A model generated the notes under the pieces. It did no database searches, was not told where the DNA came from, and was given only the letters and a program-made list of their open reading frames with translations. 64,000 bases of DNA, from the NCBI GenBank assembly GCA_963741805.1, contig CAVUJR010000003.1:56876-120875 (forward strand), in the 5' to 3' direction. Below are positions 7,138-58,290 of the stretch, one piece after another (the first letter of the stretch is position 1; the number at the start of each line of letters is the position of its first letter). The position numbers and the translations under genes are program-made. The stretch is from an uncultured Chloroflexia bacterium (GTDB taxonomy: Bacteria > Chloroflexota > Chloroflexia > Thermomicrobiales > UBA6265).

Positions 7138-7986
7138 ATGTTCGCTTCATCGTTTGCATATCATCGCGCAGAGTCCGTGGCCGATGCCGCCGCGCGGCTG
7201 GATTCCAACCCTGACGCCAAGATCCTCTCCGGGGGTCACTCGCTGATCCCGGCAATGAAGTTGCGCCTGGCGATGCCGGGCGAGCTGGTCGACATCAGCA
7301 AGCTGGACGAGCTCAAATCCATCACGATCGGTGACGAGGTCCATATCGGCGCCGGCGTGACATACCGCGATGTCGCGGCGCATGCCGAGATCTCGCAGAT
7401 GTTCCCGATCTTCCGCGCCGCGATCAGCAAGATCGGCGACCTCCAGGTGCGGGCCCGTGGCACGTTTGGCGGTGCCGTCGCCCACGCGGACCCGGCGGCG
7501 GACCTGACGGCCGTGTTCGTGGCGCTGAACGGGCGCGCGAAGCTTGTGTCGTCCTCTGGTGAGCGCGAGGTGCCGGCCGACGAGTTCTTCCTCGACCTTT
7601 GGACCACGGCCATGGAGCCGAACGAGATCCTCACCGAGATCATCCTCCCACGGCCCGCCGAAGGCTCCCGGATGACCTACGTCAAGCATTCGCATCCGGC
7701 AAGCGGCTATGCCGTCGTGGGCATCGCCGCCGTGGCGAGTATCGATGGCGGTTCCGTGCAGGATGCGCGGGTGGTCGTGACCGGAGCGACGTCTCGCCCA
7801 GAGCATCTGACGGCGCTCGAGGACGCCCTGCGCGGGTCGCCACTGGACGCTGGGACCATCGCGTCGGCTGCGTCGCATGCGGCCGACGGTGTCGAGATTA
7901 ATGGCGATACATACGCCGATGAGGAGTATCGCGCCCAGCTCATGCGCGTCCTCGCCAGGCAGGCGTTGGAGCAACTGGCCGGGTAG
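7138..7986 (+). CDS. FAD-binding medium subunit of a molybdo-hydroxylase (CoxM-like)
   Basis: N-terminus F.Y.RA.SV.EA..L......K.L.GGHSLIP.MKLRL is typical of CO dehydrogenase/xanthine dehydrogenase FAD subunits. Confidence 0.8.
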   Translation: MFASSFAYHRAESVADAAARLDSNPDAKILSGGHSLIPAMKLRLAMPGELVDISKLDELKSITIGDEVHIGAGVTYRDVAAHAEISQMFPIFRAAISKIGDLQVRARGTFGGAVAHADPAADLTAVFVALNGRAKLVSSSGEREVPADEFFLDLWTTAMEPNEILTEIILPRPAEGSRMTYVKHSHPASGYAVVGIAAVASIDGGSVQDARVVVTGATSRPEHLTALEDALRGSPLDAGTIASAASHAADGVEINGDTYADEEYRAQLMRVLARQALEQLAG

Positions 7987-22117: not shown

Positions 22118-23119
22118 ATGGACCGCGGACGCTTCTACCGAATGGCCGCTCAGGTCGCTCGAGCACAGACCAGACATGTACGTAGTTTGTGGCGAGCGCC
22201 AATCGTCGTAGCCTCAGCAACCAGCGGCGTCGCGCAAAACTCGCGTGCGCAGCGCCCAGAACCAACCCCGACGTCCATGCCGATCCGGGTCGCTCCTGAG
22301 CCCACCCCAACATCAGGGCCGCCCGACTCAATCGCTCTTCCACCCACGCCAACCGTGCCATCGAGCGGCCCGGGCAACGTGACTCCGACCGCCACCTCGG
22401 TGCCGCCCACACCGACCGCCACATCCGTCCCCCCTGCGGCGATACCGCCGTCGCCAACCCCGGTAACGCCAACCCAGGCGCCCCCTCAGGAAGAAGCGCA
22501 GCCCGGGGAGGCTCAGCAGTCCACATTCGATCCGTTCAACCCGTTCTGCCGACCGGGTCCGTTTGGGCCGTGGTTCCCTGTCGTGGCCCCACCTGACGTT
22601 ATGGCGATCACTGGCATCCGCTGGTACGGGTTACAGCCCGACATGGCCAACGGAATATTGAGTGCCAGCGCCTTCGGCGACGGCGGAGACGAGTTGAGCC
22701 GAGGGCAGGTAAATCGGGACAGCAGCGGTGCCTACAACTGGAGCCTTTCGGATGGTCAGGCTCGGATCGAGGCGTCCTTCTCCCTACAGACTGACGGCGA
22801 GGAAGGGACCATCGTCGGTGAGGTGGCTGATACTCCCTATATCCTGACGGTGACCGGTCAGCTGGAGATGGACGAGCCTGTGTCGCTCGGGGACGCCGAG
22901 CAGCGCCTTGTGGCCCAGTGGAGCGCAGTCATCCCGAAGATGGAAGTCCTCTTCGACGTCTTCTCCACAGGGAGCTCGTCTCCCTCGGCGAGCCCGGAGA
23001 AGTGCTTCACCTCCGGGTTCTTGCTCCCGTTGTCGATCATTACTTGTCCGGTGAGCGGACTTGGGTGCGCGGCCGCCGGCATCTTCGGTGGCTATATCTG
23101 GAAATTTTGCACCGATTAG
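22118..23119 (+). CDS. Secreted/exported hypothetical protein, paralog 1 (Pro/Thr-rich linker plus conserved C-terminal domain)
   Basis: AGGAGG site (22102-22107). The domain FDPFNPFCRPGPFGPWFPVV... is shared with the next gene. Cys-containing hydrophobic tail ...GCAAAGIFGGYIWKFCTD. Confidence 0.55.
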   Translation: MDRGRFYRMAAQVARAQTRHVRSLWRAPIVVASATSGVAQNSRAQRPEPTPTSMPIRVAPEPTPTSGPPDSIALPPTPTVPSSGPGNVTPTATSVPPTPTATSVPPAAIPPSPTPVTPTQAPPQEEAQPGEAQQSTFDPFNPFCRPGPFGPWFPVVAPPDVMAITGIRWYGLQPDMANGILSASAFGDGGDELSRGQVNRDSSGAYNWSLSDGQARIEASFSLQTDGEEGTIVGEVADTPYILTVTGQLEMDEPVSLGDAEQRLVAQWSAVIPKMEVLFDVFSTGSSSPSASPEKCFTSGFLLPLSIITCPVSGLGCAAAGIFGGYIWKFCTD

Positions 23120-23257
23120 CGGTTCGCGTTCGCAGATAACGCCGCGATCGTCTGGCGATCAGCGGCGGACCAGTGGGTCCCCGTAAAGATCTCCTGGACG
23201 CAGAACTTGTCCCCATGCCTGCGGCATACAGGTGCCGGAGGAGGAAGAGGTTTCGAA

Positions 23258-24007
23258 ATGGACTTCCAGCGCTTTGATGAACTCACGACGCAACTGCGCA
23301 CTGGCCAGATCGGTCGGCGCCGGTTTCTTATGAGCGCCATCGCTCTCGGTATCGGATTGCCGCACGTCACCGAGGCACTCGCAGCCCGGTCTGGAGAGCT
23401 CGATGATGCGCCTGCCTTTACCACTCAGGGACAAACGACGCCGTACAACCCGTTTGACTGGTTTTGTTGGCCGGGGCCAGGGCCGTTCATCCCATGGTTT
23501 CCGGTCGTTCCGGACGCGGATGCGGTCCGTGGAACTCGCGTTCGAATGTATGGGCTCCATCTCGGCGAAGGCGACTTGATGACTATGGCCGCCTTTGGGA
23601 ACGACAATCAGGAATTGAGTCGCTGCGAGACGTCGCGAGATCCCGACGGTTCGATTCGCCTCCGCTTCTCTGACGGAGTGACCGAGATAGAGGGTCGTAT
23701 TCTGGTCGAGCGAGATGCTGCCGGTAGCGTCCACGTGACCGGCGAGCTTGGCGGAGACCTGCTCGACACGGACGCTGAAGCATTTCCGGCCGAACGTGAG
23801 GATCCAGCGCAGAGCGAGTTGCTGAACGACTGGGTGCCGTTGGAGCACGAGGTGCGCGGTCTGCTCGACGTCCTTTCGACGGTCGGTGATGACACCGCTA
23901 CCGCCGGCGGGGCAAAGTGCGCCGCCGCCGGCTACCTGGCCGGCTTCAATTGCCTCGTTCCTCGTTGGCTCGCTTGGGCCGTTCGGGATTTCGTCATGTG
24001 TGGATGA
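23258..24007 (+). CDS. Tat-signal hypothetical protein, paralog 2
   Basis: ATG 23258 after GGAGGAGGAAGAGG. N-terminus MDFQRFDELTTQLRTGQIGRRRFLMSAIALG (twin-arginine). Domain YNPFDWFCWPGPGPFIPWFPVV... Tail ...KCAAAGYLAGFNC. Confidence 0.6.
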   Translation: MDFQRFDELTTQLRTGQIGRRRFLMSAIALGIGLPHVTEALAARSGELDDAPAFTTQGQTTPYNPFDWFCWPGPGPFIPWFPVVPDADAVRGTRVRMYGLHLGEGDLMTMAAFGNDNQELSRCETSRDPDGSIRLRFSDGVTEIEGRILVERDAAGSVHVTGELGGDLLDTDAEAFPAEREDPAQSELLNDWVPLEHEVRGLLDVLSTVGDDTATAGGAKCAAAGYLAGFNCLVPRWLAWAVRDFVMCG

Positions 24008-24083
24008 TGCCGAGTCCCTGTACGACTATGGGTGCGCTTAGCTCTGGGGTGTACATATGGATCTTTAGCCGGCTGCGGCGTTG

Positions 24084-24112
24084 TTGACACCGGTGCGGGT
24101 GGCACCTATACT
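24084..24112 (+). promoter_or_regulatory. Sigma-70-type promoter of the leuS leader
   Basis: TTGACA (24084-24089), 17-nt spacer, TATACT (24107-24112). Confidence 0.65.
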
Positions 24113-24350
24113 TCAATCGCTCCGGACGGGGTGACCCTTGCCGGAGATCAACAGTGGACAGCACGATGTACTGGCGATGAACGGAAGTAGTACGCTTCGC
24201 CCTCCAGAGAGACGCCGGCGGTGAGAGGCGTCACGAGAAGCGGAACTCGTCCGGGAGCCGCGCGGGTGAATGATCAGCCCGGGCCGGAAGCCTCCGTTAC
24301 AGGGCACAGAGCGGATCACGGAGTGGTCTGCGACCCAGGCGCAAAGACAC

Positions 24351-24423
24351 GGGGCCGTAGCTCAGCTGGGAGAGCACCACACTGGCAGTGTGGGGGTCAG
24401 GGGTTCGAGTCCCCTCGGCTCCA
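24351..24423 (+). tRNA. tRNA-Ala (anticodon GGC)
   Basis: 73-nt cloverleaf: acceptor GGGGCCG/CGGCTCC with G3:U70, D arm GCTC-AGCTGGGA-GAGC, anticodon arm CCACA-CTGGCAG-TGTGG, T arm AGGGG-TTCGAGT-CCCCT, discriminator A. CCA is not encoded. Confidence 0.9.
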
Positions 24424-24487
24424 CCCGAACGCGCATGGATTGCATGAACCGGCCTGATCAAGCAGGGTGGTACCGCGGATGCGCCCG

Positions 24488-24528
24488 ACGCCTTCGTCCC
24501 TGAGAGGGATGAGGGCGTTTTTGTGTTT
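24488..24528 (+). terminator. T-box leader intrinsic terminator
   Basis: ACGCCTTCGTCCC-tgaga-GGGATGAGGGCGT followed by TTTTTGTGTTT. Its 5' arm overlaps the antiterminator. Confidence 0.75.
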
Positions 24529-24572
24529 AACGAGCGATTGGTTTGTGGTCACCGGCCACGGGAGCGACAACG

Positions 24573-27077
24573 ATGAGCGTCCAGACTGAATCCAACGAAA
24601 TTGTCCACGAGGCAGATGCCCACCGCTATGATCACCGGGTGATCGAACCACGCTGGCGCGAGGCGTGGCAGGAGCACGCGATCTACAAGGTGGAGGACGA
24701 TAGCGAGAAGCCGAAGTGGTACTCGCTGACGATGTACCCGTACCCATCGGGCATCCTGCACGTCGGCCACTGGTACGCGTTCGCCGTGCCGGATGTCTTC
24801 GCCCGACGCCAGCGCATGCTGGGGTACAACGTGCTCTTCCCGATGGGATTCGACGCCTTCGGGCTGCCAGCCGAGAACGCTGCCATTCGCAACAACATCC
24901 ATCCCGCCCAGTGGAATGGCGAGAACATTCCCCAGATGAAGCGCCAGTACGACATGATGGGCGCCATGATCGACTGGTCGCGCGAAGTCAACACGTCCGA
25001 CCCCGATTACTATCGCTGGAACCAGTGGATTTTCCTGAAGATGTTGGAAAGGGGCCTCGCCTACCGCAAGGACGGCGCGGTGTGGTGGTGCCCGAACGAT
25101 CAGACCGTGCTGGCGAATGAGCAGGTCCTGGAAGGCAATATCTGCGAGCGCTGCGGTTCCGAGGTCTACAAGCGCGACCTGGAGCAGTGGTATTTCCGAA
25201 TCACCGAGTACGCACAGGAACTGCTCGACGAGCTGGACAGCCTCGACTGGCCGCAGCGCGTCAAGACGATGCAGCGCAACTGGATCGGTCGCTCCGAGGG
25301 CGCGCGGCTCCAGTTCGAGCTCGAGACGGGCGACACGCTCGACGTCTTCACCACCCGTCCGGATACCGTGTTCGGCGCCACGTTCATGGTGATGGCCCCC
25401 GAGCATCCGCTGGTCCAGAAGATCACGACCGACGAGCAGAAGGATGACGTCGAGGCGTACATCGCCAAGGCTCGGAACGAATCCGAGATCGAGCGCCTGT
25501 CCACGGACGTTGAGCGCAAGAAGACGGGCGTCTTCACCGGCGCATACGCGATCAACCCGGTGAACGACGAGAAGATCCCGGTCTGGATCGCCGATTACGT
25601 GCTGATGACGTACGGCACCGGCGCGATCATGGCGGTGCCGGCCCACGACGAGCGTGACTTCGCGTTCGCGCGTACCTTCGAACTGCCCATCCGGGTCGTC
25701 ATCCAGCCCGAAGACCAGGAAACACTGGTCCCGGCGAGCATGGACGAGGCCTACATTGGGCCGGGCAGGATGGTGAACTCGGGCCGATTCGACGGTCTTC
25801 CCGTCCCGGAAAGTATCGACACGGTCATCCGGTGGCTTGACGAGCAGGGACGGGGCAAGGCGGAGGTTACCTGGCGGCTGCGGGACTGGCTGATCTCTCG
25901 CCAGCGGTACTGGGGGACGCCGATCCCGGTTGTCTACTGCGATGACTGTGGTGTCGTGCCTGTCCCGGAAGACCAGTTGCCCGTCGTGCTGCCGTTGGAC
26001 GCCGAGTTCAAGCCGACCGGCCAAAGCCCGCTAATCACGCACGAGGGCTTCCTGAACACGACGTGCCCAACGTGCGGCGGTCCTGCGCGTCGGGAAACCG
26101 ACACCATGGACACGTTCATGGACTCGTCCTGGTACTGGTTCCGTTACACGAGCCCGCATTATGAAGATGGCCCCTTCGATCCAGAGAAGGCCAGGGAGTG
26201 GACACCCGTCGATCTCTACTGTGGCGGCATCGAACACGCGATCCTGCACCTGCTCTACGCGCGCTTCTTCACGAAGGTGCTGCGCGACTTCGGCCTAATC
26301 GATCACGGTGAGCCATTCGTCCGTCTCCGGAATCAGGGGATGATCCTCTCGGCCGAGGGCGTGAAGATGAGCAAGAGCCGCGGCACGCAGATCGGCCCGG
26401 ACGATCTGGTCGAGGAGCACGGCGCGGACGCCCTGCGCCTGCACCTGATGTTCCTCGGGCCGTGGGAGCAGGGCGGGCCGTGGAACGACCGTGGCATCAC
26501 GGGCATGGAGCGCTTCATCCGTCGCGCCTTCCAGATCGTATCGGAAGTCGGCGAGCGCCAGCTCGATGGCGAGGCGCCAGAGGCGGACGTCCGCGCTCTT
26601 CAGGCCTTGATGCACCGGACGATCAAGAAGGTGAGCGAGGACATCGACGATTTCTCGTTCAACACGATGATCGCCGCCCTCATCGAGTTCACGAACGAGC
26701 TGATGAAGCTCCGCGATACGCCGGTCGCCGACACGGCGCAGTGGCGCGAGGCGGCGGAAACGCTGACGTTGCTGATGGCGCCAAGCACTCCGTATGTGTC
26801 CGAAGAGATGTGGCGCCGGCTGGGCAACCCGTTCTCGGTCCATCAGCAGGATTGGCCGGTCTTTGACGCCGAGATGGCGAAGGACGACACGATCGAGATC
26901 CCGGTCCAGATCAACGGGAAGGTCCGTGACAAAGTGATAGTGCCGAACGGCGCCTCGAAGGATGACCAGCTGGCCGCCGCGAAGGGATCTGAGAAGATCG
27001 CCGAGCAGATCGCCGGCAAGACGATCGTCAAGGAGATTTCTGTTCCCGGACGCCTCGTGAACATCGTCGTCAAGTAG
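24573..27077 (+). CDS. leuS: Leucine--tRNA ligase
   Basis: Full-length class-I LeuRS (PYPSG.LHVGH, ...VKMSKSRG...). ATG 24573 after GGGAG. Confidence 0.95.
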   Translation: MSVQTESNEIVHEADAHRYDHRVIEPRWREAWQEHAIYKVEDDSEKPKWYSLTMYPYPSGILHVGHWYAFAVPDVFARRQRMLGYNVLFPMGFDAFGLPAENAAIRNNIHPAQWNGENIPQMKRQYDMMGAMIDWSREVNTSDPDYYRWNQWIFLKMLERGLAYRKDGAVWWCPNDQTVLANEQVLEGNICERCGSEVYKRDLEQWYFRITEYAQELLDELDSLDWPQRVKTMQRNWIGRSEGARLQFELETGDTLDVFTTRPDTVFGATFMVMAPEHPLVQKITTDEQKDDVEAYIAKARNESEIERLSTDVERKKTGVFTGAYAINPVNDEKIPVWIADYVLMTYGTGAIMAVPAHDERDFAFARTFELPIRVVIQPEDQETLVPASMDEAYIGPGRMVNSGRFDGLPVPESIDTVIRWLDEQGRGKAEVTWRLRDWLISRQRYWGTPIPVVYCDDCGVVPVPEDQLPVVLPLDAEFKPTGQSPLITHEGFLNTTCPTCGGPARRETDTMDTFMDSSWYWFRYTSPHYEDGPFDPEKAREWTPVDLYCGGIEHAILHLLYARFFTKVLRDFGLIDHGEPFVRLRNQGMILSAEGVKMSKSRGTQIGPDDLVEEHGADALRLHLMFLGPWEQGGPWNDRGITGMERFIRRAFQIVSEVGERQLDGEAPEADVRALQALMHRTIKKVSEDIDDFSFNTMIAALIEFTNELMKLRDTPVADTAQWREAAETLTLLMAPSTPYVSEEMWRRLGNPFSVHQQDWPVFDAEMAKDDTIEIPVQINGKVRDKVIVPNGASKDDQLAAAKGSEKIAEQIAGKTIVKEISVPGRLVNIVVK

Positions 27078-27096
27078 GGAATCCAAGGGAACGGTC

Positions 27097-27135
27097 GGGA
27101 GAGGGGTAGCGCCACAGCGCTGCCCCTCTCTTGTG
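27097..27135 (+). terminator. Terminator after leuS
   Basis: GGGAGAGGGGTAGCGC-caca-GCGCTGCCCCTCTC followed by TTGTG. Confidence 0.55.
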
Positions 27136-27219
27136 CCCGCGGGGACCGACGACAGGAAGCCGGAACCGGAGTACCCTGACGCGGAGACCCGTGACCCGAG
27201 ATACCGGAGGCAGAGAACG

Positions 27220-27891
27220 ATGAAGCACCTGAGTCCCCATCAGATTGACGCGCTGAAGCGCATCGACAGCCCGACAGTCGCGAACGCGATCGAGACGTTC
27301 GAGGTCCGGCCGCGTGTGAGCGGCTACGTCGGCTATGACATCCGCTGCATCTTCCAGGACATGCCGCCAACGGTCGGCTACGCGGTCACGTGCACCGTCG
27401 ACAGCACGACCGAGGGACGCGAGGGCATCGGATTCAATGCGCTTTACGCGTTGCTGGAGAAGGCGCCAAAGCCAGCGATCGTGGTCATGCAGGACGTCGG
27501 GCAGGATCGTACCCACTCCTGCCATGCGGGCGAGGTGATGTCGACACGCATGAAGGCGCTGGGCGCGGTGGGCATCCTGACGGACGGTGGCCTGCGGGAC
27601 GCGAACGAGGTCCGCAACCTGGGCGGTTTCCAGTACTTCTGCGCCGGGCTGGTCGTCTCGCACGGCAACCCGATCTGCGTGAGCGTCGGTGACGATGTGA
27701 CGATCTCGGGCATGACAGTGAAGATGGGCGATCTGCTGCACGGTGACCTGAACGGCATTGTGCATATCCCGGACGAGGTTGCGGCGGACGTCGCCGAGGC
27801 GGCGCACACGGTGTGGGAGCGCGAAGGTGAAACCCTCCGCGGCATCACCGGCCAGGGCGGGGATGTGCCGAGCGGCGAGCTGAAGCATTAG
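27220..27891 (+). CDS. RraA family protein (RNase E regulator / HMG-CHA aldolase-like)
   Basis: ...SPTVANAIE...VVMQD.......GE.M......G..G...DG..RD..E......F......SHG... pattern. ATG 27220 after GGAGG. Confidence 0.65.
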   Translation: MKHLSPHQIDALKRIDSPTVANAIETFEVRPRVSGYVGYDIRCIFQDMPPTVGYAVTCTVDSTTEGREGIGFNALYALLEKAPKPAIVVMQDVGQDRTHSCHAGEVMSTRMKALGAVGILTDGGLRDANEVRNLGGFQYFCAGLVVSHGNPICVSVGDDVTISGMTVKMGDLLHGDLNGIVHIPDEVAADVAEAAHTVWEREGETLRGITGQGGDVPSGELKH

Positions 27892-27982
27892 GGGCGCGCG
27901 AACAGGCGGCCCTTGTGGTCGGCTCGGGGTCACAGCGGAGAGCCAGCTCCGGTCGTGCTACGAGGGCCGCTGCCAGCACGCA

Positions 27983-28048: not shown

Positions 28049-29515
28049 CTAGACCGGCTGGAGCTCGCGCTCTTCGACCATCGCCGGTGTCCATCGCTGG
28101 TTGAGGGTGCGGTTGGCGCCGACCTCGTCCAGCCGCTTGTACTCCGTGTTATGCGGCGCGGAGGTAACGACTTCCGGCGTGTTTTCCGCCTCGTCGGCGA
28201 TCTGGAGCATCGCGTCGGCAAAGTAATCGAGCGACTCGACAGACTCGGTCTCGGTCGGCTCGATCATGAGCGCTTCCGGCACGATCAGCGGGAAGTACGT
28301 TGTCGGCGGGTGGATGCCGAAGTCGAGCAGTCGCTTGGCCATGTCGACCGTCTTCACGCCCTGCTTCTTCTGCCGGTTACCGTTAATGACGAACTCGTGC
28401 ATGCACGTGCGCTCGTACTGCACGTCGAAGCGGTCGCTCAGCCGCGCCATCAGGTAGTTCGCCGCGAGCACGGCGTCCTCACTGATCTGGCGAAGGCCCT
28501 CGGCGCCGTGCATCCGGATGTAGGTGTACGCGCGGACGTGCATGCCGAAGTTGCCGTTGAAGCTGTGCAACCGGCCGATCGACTTCTCCGGTTGGACCCA
28601 GGTGTAGGTGTCACCCTGCTTCGCCACGATGGGCCCCGGCAGGTATTGTTCCAGCCCCTCGCGGACGCCGACCGGGCCGGAACCCGGGCCGCCGCCGCCG
28701 TGCGGGGTCGAGAACGTCTTGTGCAGGTTGTAGTGCATCACATCGACGCCGAGATCACCGGGGCGGGCGATGCCGAGGATCGCGTTGAAGTTGGCGCCAT
28801 CGTTATAGACCAGGCCGCCAGCCTCATGAACAATGTCGATGATTTCCCGGATATGCTCGTCCCAAAGGCCGAGCGTGTTCGGGTTCGTCATCATGATCCC
28901 CGCAGTATCCGGACCGATCAGCTCACGTATTTTCTCGATATCGCTGTTGCCGCGGTCGTCTGACGGCACGGTGATGACCTGGAAGCCGGCCATGCGCGCG
29001 GTCGCCGGGTTGGTGCCGTGCGCCGAGTCCGGGATGAGCATCTTCGTGCGGGCGGTATCGCCACGTTCCTTGTGGTACGCGTCGATGATGAGGCATCCCG
29101 TCAGCTCACCGTGGGCACCAGCGGCCGGCTGGAGGGTGACCGCGTTGAAGCCGGCGATCTCAGCCAGCATCTCCTGAAGCTCGTACATCAGCTCCAGCGC
29201 GCCCTGGACCGTTTCCTCGGGCTGGTAGGGGTGAAGCCGGGCGAAGCCGGGATAGCGAGCGACTTCCTCATTGATCTTCGGGTTGTACTTCATCGTGCAC
29301 GACCCGAGCGGATACATCGCGATATCGATCGCGTGGTTCTTCTGGCTCAGGCGCGTGAAGTGGCGGATGACGTCGATCTCGCTGGCCTCCGGCCAGGCGA
29401 GGGTGTCCCGCATGAGTTCCTCGGGAAGTTCCGTCTCCGGGACGTCCGGCTGGGGAATGCGAATGGCGCGACGACCGGGTTTGCTAAGTTCGTAGATCAA
29501 CGGCTCCACAGCCAT
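28049..29515 (-). CDS. gcvPB: Glycine dehydrogenase (aminomethyl-transferring) subunit 2
   Basis: N-terminus [12 protein letters not shown]......PD; ...GSCTMKYNP...; PLP-lysine region [18 protein letters not shown]. Confidence 0.9.

Positions 29516-58014: not shown

Positions 58015-58290
<276 letters not shown>

Follow-up and report, generated by a model that had tools for sequence, protein, structure and literature searches.

A tRNA-Ala(GGC) gene within the Stem III loop of a leucine-type T-box leader upstream of leuS

The T-box is the textbook example of an RNA that reads tRNA, and the locus described here raises the question of what a tRNA gene is doing inside such an RNA. The window, by which we mean the whole stretch of DNA analysed, covers 64,000 nucleotides from an uncultured Chloroflexia bacterium of the Thermomicrobiales lineage (contig CAVUJR010000003.1, positions 56,876 to 120,875 of the forward strand). 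An earlier note, made from its letters alone, had proposed that one leuS T-box leader has an entire tRNA-Ala(GGC) gene inside it. This proposal is borne out by the Rfam T-box model RF00230, whose match at 24168-24504 spans the tRNA at 24351-24423. The presence of a tRNA gene in the helix with which a T-box senses aminoacylation, in more than 100 species, was unexpected. The elements of the locus, in window coordinates, are as follows.

24084..24112, + strand: leader promoter of the sigma-70 type, TTGACA-17-TATACT (11/12 consensus matches)
24120..24146, + strand: hairpin CUCCGG...CCGGAG at the predicted 5' end of the transcript, before Stem I (read from sequence)
24174..24259, + strand: T-box Stem I (Rfam T-box alignment)
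24260..24299, + strand: Stem II / IIA-B region with the F-box (Rfam T-box model positions ~105-150)
24309..24318, + strand: purine string GAGCG (RRRxG) and Stem III 5' arm GAUCA, the latter at 24314-24318 (Rfam alignment)
24319..24350, + strand: 5' spacer (pre-tRNA leader), paired with the 3' spacer in the MFE fold except for its last ~8 nt
24351..24423, + strand: tRNA-Ala(GGC) gene, 73 nt (ARAGORN, Rfam tRNA model)
24424..24454, + strand: 3' spacer (pre-tRNA trailer), paired with the 5' spacer
24455..24461, + strand: Stem III 3' arm UGAUC (24455-24459), then the conserved AA (Rfam alignment)
24464..24501, + strand: T-box sequence and antiterminator (Rfam alignment)
24487..24529, + strand: intrinsic terminator, a 15-bp stem (24487-24519) followed by the T-run UUUUUGUGUUU (fold -34.7 kcal/mol, z = -2.85)
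24573..27077, + strand: leuS, leucyl-tRNA synthetase, 834 aa, ATG at 24573 (Pfam)

The promoter, Stem I, specifier, F-box, T-box sequence, terminator and leuS start codon were each located where the earlier note had placed them. No consensus promoter-like site other than that at 24084-24112 was detected within 23800-24800 (0.2 expected in shuffles), and sequence alignment indicates that this promoter is kept in relatives. Stem I contains the K-turn GAUGA, the AG bulge AGAGAG and the distal loop GGUGAGA, assigned by the covariance model with high posterior probability across 24168-24259. Its specifier loop, GAA-CUC-G, presents the leucine codon CUC at 24246-24248 with the purine G next at 24249, in agreement with the amino acid of the regulated gene. 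The leuS product itself matches the Pfam families tRNA-synt_1, tRNA-synt_1_2 (the LeuRS editing domain) and Anticodon_1, its homologs are named leucine--tRNA ligase, and its Shine-Dalgarno sequence GGGAG lies at 24560-24564. The F-box CCGUUA (CCGTTA in the DNA) occupies 24294-24299. Further downstream, the leuS leader has the T-box sequence AGGGTGGTACCGCG at 24464-24477. The antiterminator formed with this T-box sequence (AGGGUGGUACCGCG, 24464-24477) consists of helix A1 (AGGG/CCCU), the bulge UGGUACC and helix A2 (GCGGA/UUCGU), and the UGGU of the bulge suits a ligand tRNA with A73. tRNA-Leu carries A73. The terminator overlaps the 3' half of the antiterminator. With regard to the hairpin at the predicted transcript 5' end, the alignment also places an inverted repeat at the matching position in loci L001, L002 and L005.

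The covariance model returned a single full-length match (model 1-219/219) at 24168-24504, with an E-value of 9.5e-17 and a score of 76.6 bits. An independent antiterminator or terminator ahead of the tRNA would have refuted the nested arrangement; the model detects none, and one full-length T-box spans the tRNA. In the apical loop of Stem III, 5 nt long in the consensus, the model opens an insertion of 132 nt that includes the tRNA. The position between the F-box region and the T-box sequence given in the earlier note was thus correct but imprecise, and the suggestion that the 91 nt left between these two elements without the tRNA is a normal spacing does not hold, as the consensus is ~40 nt. 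The ~59 extra nt beyond the tRNA are the two spacers, which pair together in the MFE fold and lengthen Stem III; within the Thermomicrobiales group, cognate spacers pair better than non-cognate ones. Stem III is a helix of the discriminator that senses aminoacylation. In the window its flanks read GAGCG-GAUCA...UGAUC-AA, and its loop is atypical in having the tRNA inside. A Stem III flanked by RRRxG...AA has been described for the T-box discriminator (PMC7583486, PMC7778990), and the helix is indispensable, yet variable in both stem and loop (PMC7583486). Neither Stem III as the host element nor the wide distribution of the arrangement had been recognised in the earlier note.

The distribution was investigated through relatives reached via LeuS homologs and through a tRNA-neutral scan. 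Nesting is present in 6 of the 8 Thermomicrobiales leuS loci sampled, relatives with LeuS identities of 88, 78, 74 and 73% have it, and a full-length T-box match spanning the tRNA was obtained for the window and for 12 further loci tested. The tRNA-neutral scan searched 185,579 species genomes for a T-box sequence with the T-loop of any tRNA 30-60 nt ahead of it and yielded at least 120 loci, at least ~103 of them real. Among the matches listed, all real loci consist of a tRNA-Ala(GGC) in a Leu-type leader, and leuS, or an ilvE-like ORF and then leuS, follows wherever the sequence is long enough. More than 100 species carry the nesting, in records whose labels name at least four phyla (Chloroflexota, Bacillota, Armatimonadota and Ca. 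Sysuimicrobiota), and the Stem III loop insertion (tRNA gene plus spacers) ranges from 75 to 137 nt. Among the carriers with complete genomes are chromosome OY970217.1, Thermosyntropha lipolytica DSM 11003 and Desulfitispora alkaliphila DSM 22410. The recurrence of nesting in more than 100 independent assemblies rules out chance and mis-assembly, and with them the mis-join that the earlier note had named as a possible refutation. Full-text literature searches found no description of a tRNA gene nested in a T-box leader, in agreement with the earlier note, whose author knew of none.

Several scan matches were rejected as further combinations of a tRNA with a T-box. Loci L019, L024 and L032 proved to be ordinary T-boxes in which a word resembling a T-loop occurs by chance. 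At L089, tRNA-gene-like repeats after a tRNA-Arg include the 13-mer by coincidence, and the remaining odd matches fall in coding sequence.

Comparison of the related leaders indicates how the host T-box has been maintained. A specifier-like NRA-CUC-R motif is present in 99 of 101 related leaders and a terminator follows the T-box in 87 of 104, both among the matches listed. Helices A1 and A2 are 98-99% paired in the related leaders among the matches listed, with a terminal G.U wobble in 48/54. In Stem III all six pairs (6/6) have changes on both sides, as judged from a sequence-only alignment of 54 leaders among the matches listed. With the register fixed, the Stem III arms are fully paired in 55% of cognate pairs versus 5% of non-cognate pairs, and the AA after the 3' arm is retained in 79 of 83 leaders among the matches listed. 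Flank pairing measured by duplex energy, with any register allowed and near-identical relatives included, gave only a weak separation (z ~ -0.9 to -1.2). On this comparative evidence, the T-box of the nested leaders remains under selection; antitermination dependent on uncharged tRNA is inferred.

We consider it likely that a single promoter produces a leader which serves both as a leucine-responsive attenuator and as the precursor of tRNA-Ala(GGC), with co-transcription, processing and their order being inferred. The transcript from 24084-24112 is predicted to fold as a leucine-specific T-box, its CUC specifier reading tRNA-Leu(GAG), through Stem I, Stem II/IIA-B, Stem III and an antiterminator whose UGGU bulge would match the ACCA end of tRNA-Leu. 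In place of the apical loop of Stem III stands the complete tRNA-Ala(GGC) gene with its short spacers. Because the two ends of a tRNA meet at its acceptor stem, a cloverleaf atop Stem III leaves the base of the helix and the RRRxG...AA flanks undisturbed, and the Stem III base and flanking purines are the parts that the discriminator would use for aminoacylation sensing. Polymerase would make the tRNA first, the Stem III 3' arm next and the T-box thereafter, and the choice between stopping at 24487-24529 and continuing into leuS would be co-transcriptional. Since the terminator comes after the tRNA, every transcript, terminated or read-through, would include one tRNA-Ala precursor. RNase P and a 3' processing activity would then free the tRNA, and attenuated leaders, usually seen as by-products or waste, would be productive tRNA precursors. 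The earlier note had inferred that terminated leaders could act as the tRNA-Ala precursor; the lack of an internal promoter-like site, the place of the tRNA before the terminator and the state of loci L246 and L248, described below, all fit that inference. Excision may also split read-through transcripts, leaving the sensor on one piece and the antiterminator with leuS on the other, after the termination decision, although an effect of excision on leuS mRNA is inferred and has not been shown. The spacer pairing in the window is extensive and could hinder RNase P; next to the acceptor stem, ~8 nt on either side remain single-stranded.

The long-term conservation of the arrangement hints at a benefit beyond hitch-hiking, which the dual use of the leader does not specify. 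A more far-reaching interpretation, which we put forward tentatively and hold to be less probable than not, is that the nesting is a functional ancient module rather than a frozen accident. In such a module the attenuated leader would be the main, perhaps the only, source of tRNA-Ala(GGC), and excision by RNase P/Z would be a built-in second step that cuts the sensor off from the expression platform, returns the switch to its starting state and decides what becomes of the read-through leuS mRNA. If this is true, the locus would be the first natural riboswitch to carry a stable-RNA gene within its own fold. It would also be a tRNA-Ala operon tied to LeuRS control (with a tRNA-Ala(CGC) added in Anaerolineae-type loci). 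Lineages labelled Chloroflexota, Bacillota, Armatimonadota and Sysuimicrobiota would have acquired the module by descent or by exchange.

The explanation that best survives beside the dual-purpose leader, and is compatible with it since the two can coexist, is that processing itself regulates, an alternative already raised in the earlier note. Release of the tRNA by RNase P together with RNase Z, or an enzyme equivalent to it, would break Stem III, leaving the half that binds the ligand on one RNA and the antiterminator with leuS mRNA on another. How stable or how well translated the read-through leuS mRNA is would be set in this way, and bound tRNA-Leu would be released. We regard this as possible, though on balance doubtful. 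The occurrence of this exact tRNA at this exact site in records labelled as at least four phyla suggests more than neutrality, cleavage would leave RRRxG and the 5' arm on a fragment apart from the antiterminator, and leader cleavage is known to alter mRNA fate in the thrS, met T-box and pbuE leaders discussed below. The new 5' end of leuS mRNA would, however, lie upstream of the re-formed terminator hairpin with ~45-60 nt before it, so that not even the sign of the effect, protection or exposure, is predictable. Moreover, many leuS T-boxes function without any tRNA, as the 5-nt loop of the Rfam consensus illustrates, and L246 and L248 retain the tRNA without a sensor.

A far weaker alternative is that the locus holds two independent units, the tRNA having its own non-consensus promoter in the leader and its position in the T-box being incidental. 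The promoter scan speaks against this, which we judge very unlikely. Among the matches listed, a scan of 95 loci for sigma-70-type consensus showed the 125 nt ahead of the tRNA to be free of promoter-like sites. Promoter-like sites in the matches listed instead cluster 175-225 nt upstream of the tRNA (62/101 sites), just 5' of Stem I. In Anaerolineae-type loci a further tRNA-Ala(CGC) is placed 5' of Stem I, and in 9 of 10 such loci the sole promoter-like box is upstream of this extra tRNA. The scan is limited to sigma-70-type consensus and Chloroflexota promoters are poorly known; atypical promoters can therefore not be excluded. L246 and L248, loci of a related lineage, have lost Stem I through the F-box as well as the T-box bulge, and what remains is the promoter, the tRNA and the terminator hairpin. 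That a free unit is viable is illustrated by L246, whose promoter-like box stands 65 nt before the tRNA. Compact leaders nevertheless leave merely 21-27 nt from F-box to tRNA, a gap filled by the conserved RRRxG and Stem III arm, and the spacer sequence is not conserved in the alignment of relatives. Even an internal start would still leave the tRNA in every leader transcript.

The L246/L248 lineage is in exactly the state expected if the T-box were a decaying relic, that is, if the window held merely a tRNA gene with promoter and terminator and leuS were expressed otherwise. The window T-box also scores below the Rfam gathering score (76.6 versus 93 bits), so that Rfam run over the window with default settings leaves it out. 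This score is low because the 132-nt insertion costs bits and not because elements are missing: every T-box element in the window is intact, from the K-turn through to the overlapping terminator, and there is no other promoter-like site before leuS. The T-boxes of Thermomicrobiales relatives reach 83.8-93.3 bits against the same gathering score, and compact Bacillota-type versions of the nested architecture reach 115-133 bits and exceed it. Little room remains for decay as the explanation of this locus.

The tRNA itself scores 65.1 bits against the Rfam tRNA model (gathering score 29) and is also called by ARAGORN. It has G3:U70 and A73, and the bases that follow are CCC, so CCA is not encoded. 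Slightest of all is the prospect that the insert is a tRNA mimic, a structural or regulatory module not released for decoding: it does occupy a discriminator-domain helix, and some T-boxes have inserts in Stem III and helix A2 for which contacts with the ligand tRNA have been proposed (PMC7583486), but among the matches listed all 104 related copies (66 distinct sequences) share anticodon GGC, G3:U70 and A73 while the stems compensate and CCA is encoded in 72/104, and the tRNA survives in L246 and L248 where the T-box is lost. All four tRNA helices are 100% paired with compensatory changes in 54 relatives among the matches listed. The nested tRNA is, as far as sequence can tell, a real gene, and its invariant identity and compensated stems signal selection for alanylation and decoding; expression, processing and aminoacylation are inferred, with indirect support from this purifying selection and from survival of the tRNA after T-box loss.

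A metagenome scan using the 3' half of the tRNA was aimed at the copy-number question, and the pattern used proved not to be clade-specific. Most matches were free-standing tRNA-Ala(GGC) genes with a different D-arm, which may be actinobacterial. Only two matches were identical to the window tRNA, both nested, and near-identical tRNAs comprised four nested copies and, on other contigs of unknown origin, six free-standing ones.

Several consequences follow for annotation and experiment. Regulation of leuS is probably under-annotated in Chloroflexota because the insertion drops many T-boxes below the gathering score, and nested tRNAs are listed as free-standing in annotation. The leader offers a natural system for the timing of co-transcriptional folding, riboswitch decision and RNA processing, and for testing whether downstream mRNA stability is governed by tRNA excision. 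That the Stem III loop accommodates a structured insert of 75-137 nt is of use in T-box engineering.

Comparison with known systems places the nested leader closest to the canonical transcriptional T-box (RF00230; Bacillus leuS, tyrS, glyQS). Domain order and conserved motifs are alike, and both have a specifier matched to the gene, a discriminator of Stem III plus antiterminator, and a mutually exclusive terminator. The canonical Stem III loop has 5 nt, whereas that of the nested leader holds a 73-nt tRNA gene with spacers and also encodes a stable RNA. T-boxes with large linker or discriminator inserts likewise tolerate an insertion without loss of T-box function, but those inserts, restricted to a single genus, are simple hairpins that specify no gene product of their own, while the nested insert is a bona fide tRNA gene in records labelled as at least four phyla.

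Mixed operons of tRNA and protein genes, such as E. coli thrU-tyrU-glyT-thrT-tufB, and mitochondrial tRNA punctuation place tRNA and mRNA in one primary transcript separated by RNase P/Z-type activities, as is proposed here. The S. agalactiae rplS-tRNA-Arg operon is a further example (PMC4448216). In mixed operons the tRNA lies between or beside genes with no conditional terminator before the ORF, whereas in the nested leader it lies inside a regulatory RNA helix. A synthetic RNase P riboswitch (PMC7897497) also unites riboswitch and pre-tRNA in one transcript; it is engineered and its ligand governs tRNA 5' processing, while the nested leader is natural and is inferred to govern the downstream gene.

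Precedents for cutting a leader after the transcriptional decision are cited in PMC7913692. According to that source, the B. subtilis thrS T-box leader is cut just upstream of the terminator and the mRNA is stabilised (Condon et al. 1996), RNase III cleaves and destabilises the S. aureus met T-box, and the pbuE adenine riboswitch is cut by RNase P (Seif and Altman 2008). These leaders are separated from the mRNA after the transcriptional decision with mRNA stability affected, as is predicted for the nested leader. They are cut at an mRNA-type site or a tRNA-like feature, whereas the predicted cleavage signal of the nested leader is a genuine tRNA, which would itself be released.

The tRNA-Ala(GGC) gene lies within Stem III of the leuS T-box, and all of the elements that the earlier note had named for 24084-24572 were found at the positions it had given.

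Features of the leuS leader (window coordinates)
24084-24112, + strand, promoter-like site TTGACA-17-TATACT, 11 of 12 positions matching
24168-24504, + strand, T-box (RF00230), a single full-length match in a local scan (model 1-219 of 219, 76.6 bits, E = 9.5e-17)
24314-24318 and 24455-24459, + strand, Stem III arms GAUCA and UGAUC, from the RF00230 alignment
24351-24423, + strand, tRNA-Ala(GGC), by ARAGORN and Rfam (65.1 bits against a gathering score of 29)
24573-27077, + strand, leuS ORF (leucyl-tRNA synthetase), by Pfam and homologs

A default Rfam scan left the T-box in the window unreported. The RF00230 alignment covers Stem I, the specifier GAA-CUC-G, Stem II, the F-box, the T-box sequence and the antiterminator, and a 15-bp terminator with a U-run lies 3' of the antiterminator and overlaps it. 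At the tip of Stem III a 132-nt insertion containing the tRNA replaces the 5-nt consensus loop, and because the covariance model sets the insertion at this tip, the tRNA can be assigned to the Stem III apical loop specifically. Two spacers of about 30 nt pair mutually and extend Stem III, leaving about 8 nt unpaired on each side of the acceptor stem. The F-box-to-T-box spacing of 91 nt without the tRNA had been regarded as normal; this does not hold, as the consensus is about 40 nt. No other promoter-like site of the TTGACA-17-TATACT type was detected in 23800-24800. An inverted repeat (CUCCGG...CCGGAG, 24120-24146) is located at the predicted transcript start, 5' of Stem I; three related loci (L001, L002 and L005) have a hairpin equivalent to it, and the repeat may serve as a 5' stabiliser.

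Homologs of the leuS product assign the window to Thermomicrobiales (Chloroflexota). Comparison with Thermomicrobiales relatives demonstrated tRNA-Ala(GGC) at the same leuS-leader site in genomes whose LeuS proteins are 88, 78, 74 and 73% identical to that of the window. Each of these four gave one T-box match spanning the tRNA (83.8-93.3 bits, insertions of 129-137 nt), and their Stem III arms differ through compensatory changes. Across the alignment the tRNA hardly varies, the spacers vary freely, and conservation extends to the promoter 5' of Stem I. A mis-join, which according to the earlier note would have refuted the nesting, is excluded because the relatives carry the same arrangement, with one T-box match each and compensatory arm changes.

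One genome per species (185,579 species) was scanned for a tRNA T-loop (GGTTCRANYC) with GGGTGGNACCGCG 30-60 nt further on, a pattern neutral as to tRNA identity. At least 120 loci matched. Among the matches listed, the T-loop fell within a tRNA in 100 loci, tRNA-Ala(GGC) every time, and three further loci have the same arrangement clipped by the locus edge. One listed match, a tRNA-Arg with repeat sequence after it, is probably due to chance; in three others an ordinary T-box contains a T-loop-like word by coincidence, and the remainder are coding sequence. In every real listed locus with enough downstream DNA the leader is followed by leuS, whose product is 44-78% identical to the window LeuS. 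According to the labels in record titles, the listed carriers include Chloroflexota (Thermomicrobiales and Sphaerobacteraceae, 'Chloroflexia', Anaerolineae, Caldilineae, Thermoflexales, Ktedonobacterales and Limnocylindria), Bacillota (Syntrophomonadaceae including Thermosyntropha lipolytica DSM 11003, Peptococcaceae, Pelotomaculum, Thermacetogeniaceae and Desulfitispora alkaliphila DSM 22410), Armatimonadota and Ca. Sysuimicrobiota (three Ca. Fervidifonticultor MAGs). A few carrier MAGs are labelled Actinomycetota, Pseudomonadota or Acidobacteriota, and these may be mis-binned. The true distribution is wider than the matches listed. The simplest putative explanation for the recurrence of Ala(GGC) is that the tRNA was inserted once, long ago, and that the leuS locus was then inherited or transferred.

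Several of the sampled loci displayed additional features. In L043, L078, L084 and L117 (Ca. Sysuimicrobiota, Armatimonadota and unclassified) the T-box terminator is followed directly by an ORF starting MKASSRIWMDGALVPW, with leuS after it; by eye only, this ORF looks like ilvE (branched-chain amino acid aminotransferase), in which case the tRNA-bearing Leu T-box would govern a two-gene operon. In a Ktedonobacter racemifer MAG (L031), tRNA-Leu(GAG), the predicted ligand of a CUC T-box, and tRNA-Val(TAC) are found at 7420-7609, about 3 kb downstream and after leuS, and a tRNA-Ala(CGC) 1.5 kb upstream. Two metagenome contigs (L127 and L138) hold only the 3' half of the tRNA-Ala(GGC) sequence, fused to unrelated DNA; by analogy, such partial tRNA repeats are typical of integrated-element attachment sites.

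Analysis of the leaders indicates that both the T-box and the tRNA are under selection, as inferred from sequence comparison. Among the matches listed, 99 of 101 leaders show the CUC specifier context, and 87 of 104 have a strict terminator of hairpin plus U-run after the T-box, most of the others having a hairpin with a weaker tail. Rfam returned a single full-length T-box across the tRNA in eight diverse loci; compact Bacillota-type versions exceed the gathering score (115-133 bits) and most Chloroflexota and Armatimonadota versions fall below it (57-94 bits). With the Stem III register fixed (5' arm beginning after AG-N-G, 3' arm ending 5 nt before GGGTGG), 55% of cognate arms among 58 distinct arm pairs formed six of six base pairs against 5% of non-cognate arms, and 81% against 30% formed at least five. 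When 54 compact units were aligned with MAFFT from sequence only, 97.5% of Stem III cells were paired, compared with 83% when shuffled (0 of 500 shuffles reached the observed value) and about 50% in slid controls, with changes on both sides at all six pairs. The antiterminator helices were 98-99% paired, with the terminal G.U wobble kept in 48 of 54 units. AA lies directly 3' of the Stem III 3' arm in 79 of 83 leaders; the flanking motif of this helix is indispensable for aminoacylation sensing while its stem and loop are variable (PMC7583486; PMC7778990).

As for the nested tRNA, G3:U70, A73 and the GGC anticodon are retained in 104 of 104 copies (66 distinct sequences) among the matches listed. 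All four helices are 100% paired in the 54 compact units, with two-sided changes at 13 pairs. Of the 104 listed copies, 72 encode CCA; the window has CCC. For CCA-encoding copies (L005 2284-2359, and those of L010, L059, L073, L246 and L248) Rfam gives a sub-threshold 'tmRNA' instead of a tRNA, at 39-46 bits against a gathering score of 47. A tmRNA gene at this site was rejected, the match being an artefact of clan competition and of the alanine-tRNA-like ends of tmRNA.

The position of promoter-like sites bears on whether leader and tRNA share one transcript. Within 125 nt upstream of the tRNA, none of 95 loci showed a sigma-70-type site, and 62 of 101 promoter-like sites lie 175-225 nt upstream of it, just 5' of Stem I. 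Compact leaders have only 21-27 nt from F-box to tRNA, a stretch filled by the Stem III arm together with a purine string. In ten loci of Anaerolineae, Caldilineae and Chloroflexota type (L036, L047, L051, L056, L058, L069, L073, L082, L086 and L125) an additional tRNA-Ala(CGC) immediately precedes Stem I, some 210-260 nt before the nested tRNA, and in nine the only promoter-like box is upstream of tRNA-Ala(CGC). The predicted layout there appears to be promoter, tRNA-Ala(CGC), Stem I/II, tRNA-Ala(GGC) in Stem III, antiterminator/terminator and leuS, so that two alanine tRNAs appear to flank and interrupt the leader in one operon with leuS.

In two related Thermomicrobiales loci (L246/L247 and L248; LeuS 70% identical, synteny as in the window) the segment from Stem I to the F-box has been lost and the T-box bulge has decayed (GGGCGGTTTTGCGG). 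Both keep the promoter-like box, tRNA-Ala(GGC) and a terminator-like hairpin with a TTCGTCCCT core just before leuS (L246 1231-1510). Judged by sequence alone, the tRNA has survived the riboswitch and now uses the leader's former promoter and terminator. Here leuS sits behind a terminator-like hairpin without an antiterminator, and its mode of expression is unexplained.

The best-supported interpretation is a dual-purpose leader, both T-box attenuator and tRNA-Ala(GGC) precursor, with no expression data for any carrier. The T-box would act as usual, co-transcriptionally, and carry the tRNA at the sole position where a self-closing structure leaves the discriminator undisturbed. Because the tRNA is upstream of the terminator, terminated and read-through transcripts would each give one precursor. 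From general tRNA biology, RNase P and a 3' activity would free the tRNA, and the same cuts would divide read-through transcripts into a sensor and an antiterminator/leuS part, a split that may or may not alter leuS mRNA stability or reset the switch.

Elsewhere in the window, the only further Rfam match at gathering level is a large bacterial signal recognition particle RNA (58025-58286, + strand), which covers RF01854 in full length at 190.3 bits. Downstream of leuS, on the opposite strand, lies a gene for a P-protein subunit of glycine cleavage (GcvP2_C, GDC-P; 28049-29515, - strand), a neighbour shared by L001, L005, L246 and L249. ORFs 23207-24007 and 22118-23119 (both + strand) upstream of the leader and 27070-27933 (- strand) just past leuS are without a Pfam match and are possibly not genes.

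The earlier note knew of no described T-box leader with a tRNA gene, and we likewise found none in the full-text literature searched, including T-box surveys, a structural review, the S. aureus met leader and the S. agalactiae transcriptome; this literature lies mostly outside subscription journals, so absence is not proven and a prior report is not excluded. Leader cleavage has precedents for an effect on mRNA stability in both directions, thrS being stabilised and S. aureus met destabilised, and pbuE is cut by RNase P (PMC7913692). The T-box and the tRNA gene are each of a well-known kind.
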